Shown piece after piece: positions 7,219 through 36,359 of a stretch of DNA of 64,000 bases. The stretch lies in IMG/VR virus record IMGVR_UViG_3300028171_000090, positions 128,001 through 192,000 of that record. One strand, given 5' to 3'. The position numbers and the translations under genes were made by a program. Below the pieces are notes generated by a model. That model did not search any database. It was given only the letters and a program-made list of their open reading frames with translations, and was not told where the DNA came from. How positions within the stretch are numbered: position 1 is the first letter of the stretch; each line of letters begins with the position of its first letter. The DNA is from a virus (taxonomy: Duplodnaviria; Caudoviricetes).

Positions 7219-7863
7219 TTATTTAATTGTATGAATCTTAAATGACTCACCTGTATTTTTAATAGCTTCCATATGATTAGGAATCATAGCTATTGGCAAA
7301 CTGTACTTGTCGAATACCTCTGTAGTATAATCAATCGAATCATTTACTCGTAGCATATTACCATTAGAGATAGTATACATTCGGTTACCGATTTCCAATA
7401 ATGATTTTTCATCTTTTTTAATTCCTAGTAATTGGATTTCAGCAATATAGTTACCATCTCTATTTGCCATAAATCCTAATTTAATAGTTTTTCCTGTCGG
7501 TGGCAATGAGAGCGTGTGTTCTTCATCCATAATCCCACCATTATTTGTCCACCAAGCTAATTTGGATGCAAAAGTAGTAATAAGTGCATCATCAGTATAC
7601 ACTGATATGGATTTAATATCAGTAAATCCATTACCATTGGTTTTAAGTCTTATTGCATGTAGTGTCACAGGTACATCAAAGGCTACACTAATCGATGCTG
7701 ATGTTAAATTTGCACCCCAACCCCAAGTCTCTGCTGATTGGATGCTTGAATCAAACGCTTTCCATGCAGGGTATTGAGAATCACGTTCACTCGATGCCGA
7801 TATCGTTACTCCTGGTCCTGTATATCCAGTCAATGTCGGTACTAAACTTTCTAAAGTTGCCAT
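7219..7863 (-). CDS. discoidin-like paralog 2
   Basis: LVPTLT, AWKAFD, IAEIQL, LLEIG...FKIH. Confidence 0.65.
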   Translation of the reverse strand: MATLESLVPTLTGYTGPGVTISASSERDSQYPAWKAFDSSIQSAETWGWGANLTSASISVAFDVPVTLHAIRLKTNGNGFTDIKSISVYTDDALITTFASKLAWWTNNGGIMDEEHTLSLPPTGKTIKLGFMANRDGNYIAEIQLLGIKKDEKSLLEIGNRMYTISNGNMLRVNDSIDYTTEVFDKYSLPIAMIPNHMEAIKNTGESFKIHTIK

Positions 7864-7877
7864 ATTATCACCTCCTA

Positions 7878-8498
7878 TTATGTAATTACCGTTTGTATTT
7901 TAAATTTATCAGACATGATCTTTATACTATCCATACCTTTAGTAATATCTGATAAAGAAGTACTTTGATCTACAAGGTCTAATGTAAAATCATGAGTTTC
8001 AGATACAAGCGTTAGCTTGTCACCTATAAATGAAAATAACTTTCCATCTATTTCTACAAGAGACTTCATTTTATATCCCCATAGAACTATCTCTTGTATG
8101 AATGAACTAGAATTACCTACATAAAATTGTAGTGCAACTGTCTTCCCTGTTTTTGGTTGTGCTAATTTAAATTCATTGGTCACAAGCCTATTTTCATAAA
8201 CTATTTTAACTGAAAATGATTCATCTTGACCTCCATCCACTATGATAGATTCTTTTGTAATACTAGTAAGACCTGTATAACTTGTTTTTACATCAAATTG
8301 CGTGATTATAATGGGACTATCAAACTCTATCGTAATAGTGCGCCAACCAGTCCCGGCTAAGGACCATGCATACTGCTCTCCATTAATCTCAGTTCGTCCA
8401 TCAAAAGCTTTCCATGCAGTTTCACCACCAGATGTTATCTTTATACCTGGTCCTTGTGCACTTGTTAACTTAGGAACTAAACTTTCTAAAGTTGCCAT
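7878..8498 (-). CDS. discoidin-like paralog 3
   Basis: LVPKLT, AWKAFDG, IQEIVL, LVEIDG...KFKIQ. Confidence 0.65.
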   Translation of the reverse strand: MATLESLVPKLTSAQGPGIKITSGGETAWKAFDGRTEINGEQYAWSLAGTGWRTITIEFDSPIIITQFDVKTSYTGLTSITKESIIVDGGQDESFSVKIVYENRLVTNEFKLAQPKTGKTVALQFYVGNSSSFIQEIVLWGYKMKSLVEIDGKLFSFIGDKLTLVSETHDFTLDLVDQSTSLSDITKGMDSIKIMSDKFKIQTVIT

Positions 8499-28286: not shown

Positions 28287-29144
28287 ATGGTAGAAAAGAA
28301 AGATGATAACCAATCACAGTCCTTAAATGAAGCAATCGATTATAACATCAACGAGCATCGAGAGATGACCATCTTAGACTACTATACGAATCCATACGGT
28401 AAAGGTTCAACCTTCGTCAATGTAAAGAAGATGAAGGAAGATTTGGAATTACGTTATGATAAAATGCTGGCAACAGAACACGCTAAGCTAGTCAGTAAAG
28501 TATACCGTAAGGGGAGAAAAGATAAAGCTGAATTCTTTATCTTAGTACGGATTCCATCGGAATCTATCAGAGATTTATACTATGAAGTGGTAGTGCAATT
28601 ACTACCTTCAAGAGAAACAGAACATGCTAAGACTATCAATAACTATCGTGTCAAGTTCTTCTCGAACACACCTAGCTTCGTCTTTACATTCGCCTATACA
28701 TACAACGTACATAACTTAATTGTGGAAGATTGTAAGAAGAAGTTTAGTAAAGATAGTCTACGTAATAGTCCGATTATCCGTAACCAACATAACATGGTTG
28801 GTTTAGAGAAATCGATTTACTATGCGTGTCATTATATCATGAATAACTTATCTGATTTAGACACATTAGATAGAGTGGCTCATGATTATAATCCTAAGAA
28901 ATTCTTAGAACTCATCATGGATACAGATGAGAAGTTACAAGAGTACCGCGTGATGCAAAGAATAGCAAAAGAGAAAGAAGCCAAAGAAAAATCTTCATCT
29001 CAAGGCGTTATTCGTAGAAGCAAAAACGAAATTGAGAAACAACCAAAAGCGAGAACACCTCGTACCGAAAAGGCTACTGGAAAGTCTCCTATTACAGGGA
29101 AGGCTAAAAAGGCTAAGGTAAAAGGTAAAAAGAAATTAAAGTAA
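28287..29144 (+). CDS. hypothetical protein with basic tail
   Basis: 285-aa ORF with SD. Confidence 0.7.
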   Translation: MVEKKDDNQSQSLNEAIDYNINEHREMTILDYYTNPYGKGSTFVNVKKMKEDLELRYDKMLATEHAKLVSKVYRKGRKDKAEFFILVRIPSESIRDLYYEVVVQLLPSRETEHAKTINNYRVKFFSNTPSFVFTFAYTYNVHNLIVEDCKKKFSKDSLRNSPIIRNQHNMVGLEKSIYYACHYIMNNLSDLDTLDRVAHDYNPKKFLELIMDTDEKLQEYRVMQRIAKEKEAKEKSSSQGVIRRSKNEIEKQPKARTPRTEKATGKSPITGKAKKAKVKGKKKLK

Positions 29145-33460: not shown

Positions 33461-33811
33461 ATGAATGTTCAAACGAAAAAAGTTACTGTCCCTCATCATG
33501 GCACTTTACATGTACTTAACGGTATGCAAGGACCAATCTTGGAACCTGCGAAACTCCCATTGGACAGAGTACGTGCTCTTGTCATCACTGGAATCAAAGT
33601 GATTGAGCATCTAGAAGATGGAACTCAAATCGAGTTAAATCGCCGTAACGTTGAGAAGGACAACTCTCACCTGCAAGAGTCTTTAAAGAAAGCAGAAAAA
33701 CCTGCTCCAGTTGTTAAGCCTAATGAGCAACAACAAAAGCAAAAAAATAAAGAAGAGTTTGTTAAAGACAACCGTAAGCAAGACGGTAACAAAAATAACA
33801 AACAAAACTAA
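33461..33811 (+). CDS. hypothetical protein
   Basis: 116 aa, AGGAGG SD, K/N/Q-rich tail. Confidence 0.7.
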   Translation: MNVQTKKVTVPHHGTLHVLNGMQGPILEPAKLPLDRVRALVITGIKVIEHLEDGTQIELNRRNVEKDNSHLQESLKKAEKPAPVVKPNEQQQKQKNKEEFVKDNRKQDGNKNNKQN

Positions 33812-33822
33812 CAAAAAAATTA

Positions 33823-33862
33823 ATAGATGTAGACTATGCCTAATGGTGTAGTCTACATCTAT
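33823..33862. terminator. bidirectional terminator
   Basis: 18-bp stem (two G-U pairs on +), TAAT loop, T-tracts on both strands. Confidence 0.75.
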
Positions 33863-34708
33863 ATTTTTCTTTTTCATCTTTTTATCTCTCTCTTTTTTAT
33901 CTTGGAATGTTTTTGTTTATTAGTTTTTCTCTGTTTTAATTCGTTTTATATTTTTTATATATCTGTTTTCCTAGATGAAATGATCCCCATCATCCATCTG
34001 GATGCAGGTGAGTCCCTACGTCACCCGCGGAATGATACCCTCCGTGATGTTATATTCTAAATATATCATTCCTGAATACTTTTTTGTCTGTTTTGTGAAC
34101 TGAATAAACATAATATATTAAAGTTTCTCCTCTCCGAGAAACTTATACAATTTTACCCATATTTTGTTACACTCGCTATCTCTCTCTTTCTTGTTGAATA
34201 CGTCACATGCTGTAGACATTAGAACGTTTCTCTAAATTTCTACCTACATTCCCCAAAACCGTACAGAGTATAAAGCTTTCCAATGACTTAGTGGTGTCTC
34301 CGAATAATCCTTCTCCGATTACTCTTCTCCTCCGATAGTATCTCCGTCCATCATTGCTTCACACCCCCTCTCGTAAGAGGGTGTGAAGGTATAGCTTTAC
34401 ATCTTAGTAAATCTTGTCGTGTTTGGGATGTAGTAGTTGTTACATAGCCGATGACCTGATTATAGCCAGGCATCCGTTTTAGACCTAATTAATTAGCCTT
34501 AACGTTTTTAGTCAAGGGGTTTAAGAAGTGTTAGCCTAGTAGTCTACACTAAGCTCGTCTAGCTATAAATAACATTACTACCACTATCATATATCTCTTT
34601 ATCCCACACCTGTAATAAGTACTCCTCGATGTAATCAATTGAAAATATACCTCCATCTTTTTTAGTATGGAGCGTTTAGCATAGTAGTAAAACCATTATC
34701 AACACTCG
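33863..34708 (-). ncRNA. putative large structured non-coding RNA
   Basis: No credible ORF; early-like promoter at 34706-34723; terminators on both sides; many hairpins including a UACG tetraloop; six CGGAG motifs. Confidence 0.5.
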
Positions 34709-34723
34709 TATATATAATGTGTG
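34706..34723 (-). promoter_or_regulatory. early promoter-like motif (variant)
   Basis: CACACATTAT ATATA CGA. Confidence 0.4.
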
Positions 34724-34759
34724 CTTAAATAACGGTTTATTACTATTTTATAAAAAGGT

Positions 34760-34786
34760 ACGAATAGGGACATAATCCCTATTCGT
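34760..34786 (-). terminator. intrinsic terminator after beta' N gene
   Basis: 11-bp stem ACGAATAGGGA/TCCCTATTCGT overlapping the stop codon, then a T-tract. Confidence 0.7.
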
Positions 34787-36359
34787 CTTTTGTTAATGCA
34801 TAGAACGTTTGTAAAGCTTCGTTTTCGGTACTACGGATGTTCGAGCCTGATACGTTTAGAATATTTGTTTTATTCTTAATCAGCCTGTCCAATTCACGGT
34901 TTGATTCAACACTGAATACACCACGAATTGTTACTTGGTCACCGTCATAATCTCCACCTAAACCTTTTAGGTATAAGTTAGAGATATTCAGAGTCTCAAC
35001 AAACATCGTAGATACATGTGATGTAGGTAGTTCTAAGTCTACGTATGGATAACGTTTATAGAACTTACCATTGATTACAGCTGGTATAGTACGTGTTGTA
35101 GACAGAACTGTTATCTTATTTGGAAAGATTCCAAGATAGTCCTGTAGAGGGTAGCGCGTTATTAAAACGTGCTTATCCGCACATACTTCCGTTGCTGCTA
35201 AGAATAATATATCAGTCCATGTTGCAGGTCTATTTACAATGGTAGAAGATTCTGTAACCTCACCATTCTTACCTACACCATAACGTCCAGATATACGTAA
35301 CTTCAAGTTCAATCCTTCACTATTCTCTAGTGGGATTGTCTTGTATCGGTCAGCATAAGAGTGTACATATAAGTCAATACATTTGGTAATGTATTCATCA
35401 TTATATTGCTCAACGTTCGTTAGCTGTACATTTCCTAGCTCACCGGTTTTCCTACGTATCGGATAATTATCTTTACGTAGTACGATTTCTTTATAGAAGA
35501 AATCTTTTACCCATTTAATAATATAAGGAAGGAAGTTCGTTACTGCCATTGAGAGTGGTAACCCGCAACGGTAGAAGGATACTTCCATATCTTCCGGCGT
35601 TTCATCTTTAAATAATGGAGTAGAGATTACGGCACGTACACCATAGTCAACACTTTTACCCATTACGAACTGACGGAACATTCCGTGCTTCCCTTTAATT
35701 TGGAATGTAAAGTTATTATAGATTTCTACTAATAGATGCTGTATCTTTAATCGAGTACTGTCACCTACAATAGATAATCCCGAGTTATCGTTCTTTAAGG
35801 CAGAACATAACCGAAGTAACTTTGCATACATTTTGTTTTCTTCACCACTAGATAGTTTACCTTTGTCCATCTTATCCAATTGGATGTCTCGATAGAACGC
35901 TGGTTCTACTATCCAGAATTTGGTAAATATTTCATTCATTTTAAGACCTTTGATTAAATCAACACGGTCTGTACGAGATAAGCTCGCACTCTTTTTAAAC
36001 TTAATCTTGTGGAAATTACGTACTAGGAATGGTAAACCTGTTTGTCCGTTTTCTTCATCGACAACAATGTCTCCTTCTCCTGTAATACGTACGTGTATAT
36101 TTCCTGCAATAATTTCTTCGAAACGTCGGTCTAGACGTTTCAATACTTTATATACATAAGGATGGAAGAAGTTCTCGTTCAAACTTATGTATGCAAAAAT
36201 ACCTTTACGATCTTCGACTGTACGTCCGAAGATTTCAGTAGATAGAAGTCCGTCTACAGTCGGTATGTTATCACGTTCGATTAGAATCGGATTACGTACT
36301 TCTTGTAGATTATTCACTTGAATAAACTTCTCTACATTAAATATATCAATATTCATCAA
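34779..36359 (-). CDS. rpoC: RNA polymerase beta' N-terminal/catalytic half, probably virion RNAP
   Basis: GLLSTEIFG, GKHGMFRQFVMGKSVDYGVRAVI, catalytic GGDYDGD. Confidence 0.9.
   Translation of the reverse strand: MMNIDIFNVEKFIQVNNLQEVRNPILIERDNIPTVDGLLSTEIFGRTVEDRKGIFAYISLNENFFHPYVYKVLKRLDRRFEEIIAGNIHVRITGEGDIVVDEENGQTGLPFLVRNFHKIKFKKSASLSRTDRVDLIKGLKMNEIFTKFWIVEPAFYRDIQLDKMDKGKLSSGEENKMYAKLLRLCSALKNDNSGLSIVGDSTRLKIQHLLVEIYNNFTFQIKGKHGMFRQFVMGKSVDYGVRAVISTPLFKDETPEDMEVSFYRCGLPLSMAVTNFLPYIIKWVKDFFYKEIVLRKDNYPIRRKTGELGNVQLTNVEQYNDEYITKCIDLYVHSYADRYKTIPLENSEGLNLKLRISGRYGVGKNGEVTESSTIVNRPATWTDILFLAATEVCADKHVLITRYPLQDYLGIFPNKITVLSTTRTIPAVINGKFYKRYPYVDLELPTSHVSTMFVETLNISNLYLKGLGGDYDGDQVTIRGVFSVESNRELDRLIKNKTNILNVSGSNIRSTENEALQTFYALTKDE

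Follow-up and report, generated by a model that had tools for sequence, protein, structure and literature searches.

Several bacterial regulatory RNAs have a dual function, among them RNAIII/hld of S. aureus, SR1/SR1P of B. subtilis and SgrS/SgrT of E. coli, and translation gated by RNA structure is familiar from the mRNAs of type I toxins (hok/mok) and from the RNA phage MS2. For jumbo phages equipped with RNA polymerases (RNAPs) of their own, few small RNAs are, to our knowledge, described, and none with an assigned function. In 201phi2-1 and phiKZ, ONT-cappable-seq revealed small RNAs of <250 nt that mostly derive from 5' untranslated regions by premature termination (PMC11512511), and in T4-type phages promoter-early stem-loops (PeSL) were found in hyperplastic regions (Arbiol et al. 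2010, PMC2839356). Here we describe a unit of ~850 nt, poor in open reading frames (ORFs), that lies next to a virion RNAP gene of an uncultured soil jumbo phage, the presumed host of which belongs to the Bacillota. The window analyzed comprises 64,000 nt, bases 128001-192000 of the 223,016-bp IMG/VR virus record IMGVR_UViG_3300028171_000090, and all coordinates are given in window numbering. A first-pass annotation of the window had proposed that positions 33863-34708 encode a large non-coding RNA, had pointed to GOLLD and ROOL as known examples of such RNAs and had named a replication origin as the main alternative.

With a probability of roughly one half, we read the unit as a dual-function early RNA, in which a conserved fold, a hairpin that buries a Shine-Dalgarno (SD) box and a micro-ORF are followed by a drifting tail. 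A giant GOLLD-like structured RNA of 850 nt is not what the unit is. It belongs to no described family, and RNAs of this sort, small and structured, with a micro-ORF embedded in them and situated in a variable, PeSL-like early slot, are already known. The features of the unit are given below; they were compared in an alignment (A2) of the window and seven close relatives, 8 sequences in all.

34760 to 34786, minus strand: intrinsic terminator closing the virion RNAP beta' gene (terminator scan, 12 pairs).
34707 to 34749, minus strand: early-type promoter, from the genome motif and conservation, with a predicted, unmapped start at G 34707.
34549 to 34656, minus strand: mini-ORF1, 35 codons from ATG, or 29 from TTG 34638 with GGAGGT 10 nt upstream.
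34419 to 34613, minus strand: conserved 195-nt RNA fold, from separate minimum free energy (MFE) folds and compensatory changes.
34351 to 34473, minus strand: mini-ORF2, coding doubtful, 40 codons in 8/8 sequences.
34357 to 34388, minus strand: 14-bp hairpin CUUCACACCCUCUU-(loop)-AGAGGGGGUGUGAAG, stem invariant in 8/8 sequences.
34319 to 34354, minus strand: micro-ORF3, MMDGDTIGGEE and stop, 11 codons, peptide identical in 8/8 sequences.
33863 to 34318, minus strand: fast-evolving 3' tail with no conserved frame in A2.
34121 to 34144, minus strand: hairpin AAGUUUCUC-GGAGAG-GAGAAACUU, the sole conserved island of the 3' half.
33823 to 33862, both strands: bidirectional terminator common to the unit and a convergent 116-aa gene (scan, 18 pairs, T-runs on both sides).

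The close relatives were found by a protein search with the RNAP piece that adjoins the gap. They are seven contigs in two tight clusters, with the following amino-acid identities of RNAP to the window:

L178: 99.4%.
L176 and L177: 95%.
L169, L179, L180 and L181 (sister clade): 84-85%.

All seven share an identical gene order, so that synteny of the slot is kept, and in each the slot measures 850-960 nt and holds no consistently called gene; the gene caller reported single ORFs of 56-69 aa in the slots of L177, L179 and L180, none of them common between contigs. As a neutral yardstick we used the third codon positions of the RNAP gene, where identity is 0.75 between the window and L176 and 0.53 between the window and L169. 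The parts of the unit gave the following identities:

Leader: 0.96 to L176; about neutral, 0.44-0.52, to the L169 clade.
ORF1: 0.95 to L176; 0.67-0.68 to the L169 clade.
Inter-ORF piece (75 nt): 0.99 to L176; 0.60-0.63 to the L169 clade.
ORF2: 0.94 to L176; 0.86-0.87 to the L169 clade.
ORF3: 0.97 to L176; 0.94-0.97 to the L169 clade.
Tail (34318-33863): 0.70-0.81 to L176; 0.53-0.65 to the L169 clade (L169 itself, ungapped columns: 0.53-0.61).

Evidently, the unit splits in two, with a 5' part of ~390 nt (34705-34319) whose conservation greatly exceeds the neutral level and a 3' part of ~450 nt that changes at the neutral rate. The 5' half is under selection at the nucleotide level. A structured extent of 850 nt, as first supposed, is not upheld, since the 3' ~450 nt are neutral and largely replaced in the sister clade, where two of the claimed hairpins, GGAAUGAUA/UAUCAUUCC (34029-34072) and GCGGGUGA/UCACCUGC (34004-34028), are absent. 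The tail holds many indels not divisible by 3, and in its 34004-34028 stem one compensatory change from G-C to A-U is seen in L176/L177. In the conserved island at 34121-34144 the stem persists in the relatives, where its register is shifted and U-G pairs occur; no change is seen in the block GGAGAGGAGAA, and the A that follows it becomes G in L179-L181, where the pair is kept as U-G.

Within the 5' part, RNAalifold on A2 predicted a long-range pairing of 34609-34556 with 34449-34419, and when five lineages were folded separately one and the same architecture was obtained. A junction is closed by the stems P1 (UGGGA/UCCCA plus GU/AC), P2 (GUGGUAGU/ACUACUAC), P3 and P4 (CAUAGCU/GGCUAUG) and carries the hairpins Ha (9 bp), Hb (7-9 bp) and Hd (bulged), to which the window clade adds an extra hairpin of 4 bp. 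Ha and Hb differ in sequence between the clades and are the same in position and length, and a covariance model (R1) built from the window clade only found the sister clade at 92-97 bits. This was further supported by pair counting, where standard pairs made up 94.6% of cells, as compared to 88.8 +/- 0.9 in shuffles (0/500 reached the observed value) and 21-53% with slid partners. Eight pairs have changed on both sides, three of them in Ha and five in Hb. Between the window and L176 the whole fold differs by two substitutions and one 3-nt insertion, as compared to 25% at neutral sites. Several G-U pairs in the fold are invariant, and therefore the fold would work solely as minus-strand RNA. 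The proposal of a conserved structured RNA thus survives in part, borne by the compensatory changes in the 195-nt fold, while the conserved sequence amounts to the 5' ~390 nt and not to 850 nt.

Thermodynamic stability of the whole unit was a less specific signal. The GC-rich minus-strand hairpins of the first-pass annotation were all recovered in the MFE fold (5/5), and the z-score of the MFE against shuffles was -7.05 for the minus strand vs. -2.3 for the plus strand. The former value overstates the case, because the mean for 640-nt windows drawn at random from this genome is itself -2.35 (+/- 1.5, minimum -6.4). In windows of that size the gap has values of -4.5 to -5.7 and ranks in roughly the top 5% of the genome, which is raised and not extreme. 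We therefore rejected the z-score as proof of structure, as the genome background is strongly negative and slots of relatives with real small genes score alike.

Downstream of the fold, the 3' arm of the 14-bp hairpin contains the SD box of ORF3 (GGGGGUG, 7 nt upstream of ORF3). Its loop reads UACG in sequences of the window clade and has changed to UGAG in those of the sister clade, and the UNCG-loop hairpin pointed out at first is thus real in the window clade, with a loop that is not kept beyond it. The ORF3 sequences differ by GGA>GGC, GAG>GAA and TAA>TAG only, all synonymous or stop-to-stop, and these synonymous-only changes together with the SD box and the start codon have, as judged from the sequence, the hallmarks of coding DNA. 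ORF3 is very probably translated. Its codons also occur in two Bacillus phages. In vB_BceM_WH1 (L165), 34/37 nt (92%) match an unannotated 12-codon ORF, MMDGDTIGGEEQ, at 28843-28881 of the record, which has the SD box AGGAGGTG upstream and overlaps by ATGA the start of gp053, a 41-aa CxxC...CxxC protein. In 0305phi8-36 (L168) the match (27/29 nt, 93%) covers the first 10 codons of gp108, a protein of 204 aa that adjoins the left terminal repeat, has no family match and shows no similarity to the ORF3 region past residue 10. Every nucleotide difference between ORF3 and these two phages is silent. Acidic mini-ORFs with (D/E)GDTI(G/A) are also found in the same slot of the distant relatives L004 and L005.

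All three ATG-started frames are kept in 8/8 sequences. ORF1 has a common C-terminal core (..YRCG.K..IVVV.LFIA.R. and stop), and its frame and stop are present in 8/8 sequences with inner indels of -6 and +3. In the sister clade ORF1 comprises 26 codons with AAGGAAGG 11 nt ahead of the ATG, and SD box and start codon stand at matching positions in both clades. The AUG of ORF2 lies within hairpin Hd and its length is constant despite indels of +6, -3 and -3. The stop of ORF2 overlaps the start of ORF3 (ATGA), an arrangement that fits translation by ribosomes coming from the upstream frames. The five alignment-resolved indels inside the shared frames (+3; -6; +6; -3; -3) are all multiples of 3, which is expected in about 1 of 240 cases by chance, whereas most indels outside the frames are not; the 5-nt and 2-nt gaps set by the aligner (columns 198-204) precede the ORF1 start of the sister clade. 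The frame-preserving indels therefore keep the coding reading of ORF1 and ORF2 alive. Neither peptide has a match in distant relatives, Pfam or PHROGs. In ORF2, synonymous divergence (pS) is 0.18 and nonsynonymous divergence (pN) 0.14; since pS is low and pN about equal to it, the silent sites must be held by a constraint other than the protein, the simplest candidate being the fold. Moreover, the conservation of ORF1 and that of ORF2 are not independent, because they are the two strands of P1-P4, with VVV codons pairing with TTT codons. The stretch is thus ORF-free with respect to long ORFs, as first stated, and not with respect to short ones, given the three conserved mini-ORFs.

The view of the gap as a separate minus-strand unit was borne out by the early-type promoter, two terminators and a purine skew. 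On the minus strand the promoter core ACACATTAT (34722-34714) is followed by the 6-nt spacer ATATAC and then the G at 34707, and is preceded by the upstream box AAAATAGTAATAAAC (34749-34735). This is one copy of the motif AAAATCGTAAYAA..tATACATTAT-(6N)-G, which stands ahead of genes in ~15 copies in this genome, is enriched in its intergenic DNA and is kept at this place in all seven close relatives. The experimentally defined early consensus of AR9 is AAATATATATTAT-(6N)-G+1 (PMC5312081), and the AT-rich box ..ATTAT, the 6 nt and the start G of such an early (virion RNAP) promoter are all found here. Genome-wide motif, relatives and AR9-like layout hence agree with the early-type promoter assigned at first. 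The two terminators were likewise found by the scan where they had been placed. The one at 34760-34786, which separates the gap from the RNAP gene, is 100% identical in 8/8 aligned sequences, as compared to 73-77% in the flanking coding DNA, and the 18-bp bidirectional one at 33823-33862, where the unit ends, has 88-96% identity to the relatives; both are nearly invariant across the seven related contigs.

Other signals near the 3' end were considered and set aside. The AR9 late motif AACA-(6N)-TA/G heads small-RNA cassettes elsewhere in this genome, and the late-promoter-like AACAGATATATA (33967-33956, minus strand) fits AACA-(6N)-TA ~100 nt before the terminator; it is lost in L176 and in the L169 clade. 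The 9-nt box AGACTATGC is a mark of the small-RNA cassettes in two arrays of the genome (26.8-28.2 kb and 221-223 kb) and occurs also at 33831-33839 (plus strand) in the 5' arm and loop of the terminator at 33823-33862, and a minus-strand RNA would end with its exact complement, GCAUAGUCU. As a signal this box was rejected; it has three copies outside the arrays vs. ~1.7 expected by chance, and its presence in the terminator may be a coincidence.

In our model, a minus-strand early unit of ~850 nt would begin at the predicted start, 34707, end in the terminator at 33823-33862 and would probably be read by the injected virion RNAP. Only the first ~390 nt, with the 195-nt fold, the 14-bp hairpin and the 11-codon ORF, would be functional sequence. 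The fold would be the part that works at the RNA level, either by acting in trans on some partner or as a translational gate. Opening of the structure, e.g. by ribosomes traversing the upstream frames, would then permit translation of the micro-ORF and possibly of mini-ORF1, and along the remaining ~450 nt, a tail free to drift, transcription would proceed to the shared terminator. A bolder version takes the 195-nt fold as a new trans-acting early RNA that binds or sequesters a host or phage factor within minutes of the onset of infection, and the acidic decapeptide MDGDTIGGEE, its codons shared by unrelated Bacillus jumbo phages (AR9-like and 0305phi8-36-like), as a portable micro-effector or regulatory nascent peptide, the two forming one RNA-plus-micropeptide module not described before; this we regard as clearly unlikely.

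Several observations weigh against a dual-function RNA. The evidence for the fold comes from just two clades, and all compensatory changes therefore amount to one evolutionary contrast, while the alignment used for pair counting was itself fitted to the structure. P1-P4 never vary, which shows constraint and leaves pairing unprovable from these stems, so that the covariation proposed as a check is present as eight two-sided changes in Ha and Hb, within a single two-clade contrast. No fold-like element was found in relatives beyond 85% RNAP identity, and in stability the unit ranks no higher than about the top 5% of genomic windows. Recent recombination between the clades could also yield islands of high identity. 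As to the frames, ORF1 is weakly constrained as a protein (pN 0.30 vs. pS 0.52, pN/pS ~0.6), and in ORF2 an SD box is missing and the differences are spread over the codon positions without periodicity (6/4/7). Finally, the transcript, its ends and its timing are predictions from sequence.

Among the alternatives, a plain early mini-gene operon holds up best. ORF1-3 would then be small proteins and the fold a by-product or a local device for translational coupling. We find this unlikely, though not far-fetched, as three frames with their stops are kept in 8 sequences, resolved in-frame indels come in multiples of 3 where most others do not, ORF1 has its SD box and start codon in both clades, ORF2 and ORF3 are joined by the ATGA overlap, the changes in ORF3 are purely synonymous, and small genes or ORFs occupy the slot in distant relatives. 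However, the pS of ORF2 (0.18, as compared to a neutral divergence of 0.47) with a pN about equal to it speaks for constraint on the nucleotides and not on a protein, and ORF2 is without an SD box, although genes of this genome as a rule have one. Outside the ORFs, the leader and the inter-ORF piece are 96-99% identical to L176, and the compensatory changes in Ha and Hb fall in the non-coding inter-ORF piece, except where the 5' arm of Ha takes in the final codons of ORF1. None of the peptides has a family match.

A purely non-coding structured RNA, as first proposed, would leave the mini-ORFs untranslated, with the frames as side effects of the paired strands. The shared architecture and compensatory changes of the fold agree with this, as do the tie between ORF1 and ORF2 as two strands of P1-P4 and the missing SD box and codon periodicity of ORF2. 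Nevertheless it appears improbable, since the changes in ORF3 are third-position and silent, 3/3 within the clades and all of those vs. WH1 and 0305phi8-36, two unrelated Bacillus phages, of which 0305phi8-36 uses the same codons to start a 204-aa protein, and since the frame-preserving indels of ORF1 and ORF2 would require a coincidence of ~1 in 240 if their lengths were random. On this evidence the claim of a purely non-coding unit is probably wrong.

The unit could also be mostly non-functional remains at a hyperplastic PeSL-like site, where cassettes, e.g. a gp108-like gene start, are swapped in and decay. This touches on the history of the slot in more distant relatives, of which we found ~160 viral/metagenome loci with an RNAP gene of <=49% identity. 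In many of them the RNAP stop is followed by a terminator hairpin, then (C)CGTATTTT and then an AR9-like early box, ATATATATTAT; after this head the slot is ORF-poor and purine-rich, measures 275-1480 nt and is unalignable to the window. Among relatives at 47-61% RNAP identity the slot content is wholly different while the head of terminator and early promoter is kept, and between L087 (2115-2792) and L088 (2062-2656) the slot is 62-94% identical with indels, whereas the flanks are 99-100% identical. The divergence of this pair and the unalignable distant slots therefore indicate that the stem-loop and early promoter lead into a slot of variable content, a hot spot behind the RNAP gene at which sequence changes or is exchanged. 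In ~170 related loci with 26-61% RNAP identity no homologue of the fold was found by blastn or by nhmmer with the gap and with a window/L169 profile, and model R1 had no match in more distant relatives (the one in L008, E 0.4, is at chance level). Six-frame translations of the gap gave low-complexity matches only against the relatives, and the small proteins called in their slots had no match to the gap. The neutral evolution of the 3' half and the match of ORF3 to just the first 10 residues of gp108 are also in line with decay. Strong purifying selection on the 5' 390 nt in two clades, together with the compensatory changes, is not, and hence decay fits the tail only and is quite improbable for the unit. 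A reading of the gap as a pseudogene was rejected, as translations, gp108 and the small proteins of relatives gave no match beyond the ORF3 codons.

A DNA-level element (replication origin, packaging site or recombination site), suggested by a large non-coding stretch with inverted repeats at a point of convergent transcription, is highly improbable, since the gap shows no iterons, direct repeats or tandem arrays beyond chance two-copy matches, has the G+C content of the genome (0.345) and no AT-rich block for unwinding, and has conserved inverted repeats with G-U pairs that would be mismatches on the other strand and hence in a DNA cruciform, while the repeat-rich gaps of the genome lie elsewhere (26.8-28.5 kb and 221-223 kb); a replication origin is thereby dropped as the main alternative to the RNA.

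More specific functions did not fit either. CGGAG occurs 6 times in the unit vs. 0.24 expected, the maximum in the genome, but a CsrA sponge of CsrB/RsmZ type was rejected, as the C of CGGAG is unconserved and the phage has no CsrA gene; GGAG is kept in the relatives only inside ORF3 and the 34121-34144 hairpin. Features of a type I toxin-antitoxin pair were not found in the unit, where the hydrophobic run of ORF1 spans ~11 residues and no promoter-like antisense site stands out. As to known RNA families, Rfam 15 gave zero matches at the gathering score in the whole window, and at E <= 10 on 33600-35000 only chance-level ones, the best being Plasmodium RNase P (E 0.15, 25 bits vs. a threshold of 100). 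The likeness to GOLLD and ROOL thus found no support in RF01998, RF03087 or any other Rfam model. An ORF-less group II intron found no support either, as the model RF00029 reached 18 bits (gathering 40, E 1.2) at 34212-34280, which is within the non-conserved tail. With the whole gap as query, megablast found no match in public phage records and the sensitive mode a single one, of 37 nt, in WH1, and neither the hairpin nor the P2/P1 strand nor the codons of ORF3 had a single match when viral and genome contigs were scanned with exact patterns.

Soil RNA libraries were examined as assembled contigs, the depth and ends of which are unusable for ranking expression or mapping ends. The gap was present in 17 runs and the neighboring RNAP gene in 21, and in three runs a gap-bearing contig had the top depth figure. 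These contigs are weak evidence because DNA carry-over is possible. They span the unit without a joint, which indicates no splicing. Within the RNAP beta' gene, contigs from two different libraries (X8 and X12) start at 34967/34947 and end at 35847/35848, and depth figures are very low in the part of the gene upstream of that. The shared end may reflect internal initiation or processing, for which contigs are not proof.

The slots of distant relatives showed further small frames. Those of L004, L005, L013, L024, L087 and L088 are GGAG-rich on the sense strand only (L087: 8 vs. 0) and carry perfect SD boxes, e.g. AAGGAGGTGA, followed by frames of merely 10-15 codons; either micro-ORFs or SD-like decoys recur there. 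In L025 the slot is filled by two paralogous ORFs of ~57 aa (7703-7876 and 8013-8183) with strong SD boxes, which are 53% identical over 19 residues and have the motif KxWILxxI..GY in common.

As to the surroundings, the gene that adjoins the gap (34779-36359, minus strand) is a split RNAP beta' piece (phrog_2986), the best cultured relatives of which are in AR9/PBS1-type Bacillus jumbo phages (35-37% identity); the AR9 homologue is annotated as a virion RNAP subunit. On the opposite flank a convergent block ends at 33811, with a 116-aa ORF (33461-33811), a head-tail joining protein, a primase and a second RNAP piece. Between 33812 and 34778 all six frames contain 17-31 stops each and there is no ORF >=80 aa, the sole ORF >50 aa being a T-rich low-complexity frame at 33836-34060 (plus strand). 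No tRNA or tmRNA genes were found. The 223-kb genome has three gaps >=300 nt without a 50-aa ORF, and this is the single one in the window; six-frame stops and gap count at the 50-aa threshold therefore agree with its description as the sole large gap in the window. Outside the window, a fourth stretch without an ORF >=80 aa (genome 65725-66799) holds two early-type promoters and small SD-boxed ORFs and is probably a mini-gene cluster.

The most intriguing piece is the 11-codon ORF, of which an almost base-identical copy exists in Bacillus jumbo phages of an unrelated group (0305phi8-36-like). Should the host turn out to be a target of the peptide or of the fold, the phage would possess an early takeover element that is both very small and portable. 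For genome scans the locus illustrates that an "ORF-free" stretch may hide conserved micro-ORFs and that half of a large non-coding RNA candidate may be neutral spacer.

Compared with RNAIII, SR1 and SgrS, the phage unit is likewise a structured RNA of a few hundred nt under nucleotide-level selection with a very small ORF (11-40 codons), but it shares no sequence or structure homology with them and is phage-encoded behind an early phage promoter; furthermore, its exposed loops are G-rich (GGAG), whereas those of RNAIII are C-rich anti-SD loops. With hok/mok and MS2 it has in common the long-range pairing, the SD-burying hairpin and an upstream frame that ends at a downstream start (ATGA), while it differs in having no hydrophobic toxin and no visible antisense RNA, and gating is here a prediction. 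Like GOLLD and ROOL, it extends from promoter to terminator over a large stretch in which there is no long ORF, and the host of its phage is presumably one of the Bacillota, yet its conserved structured part is ~200-390 nt as compared to 600-800 nt and is confined to two sister clades. The small RNAs of phiKZ-like phages also belong to jumbo phages with their own RNAPs and are positionally conserved among relatives; no sequence relation to them was found, and the unit described here is free-standing, ~850 nt long, and has a 195-nt junction fold and micro-ORFs. The arrangement is in line with PeSL, in which a stem-loop terminator and then an early promoter head a swapped slot of small, mostly unknown early ORFs, except that the promoter is of the AR9-like early type and not sigma-70, and that the slot is occupied by a fold conserved in two clades.

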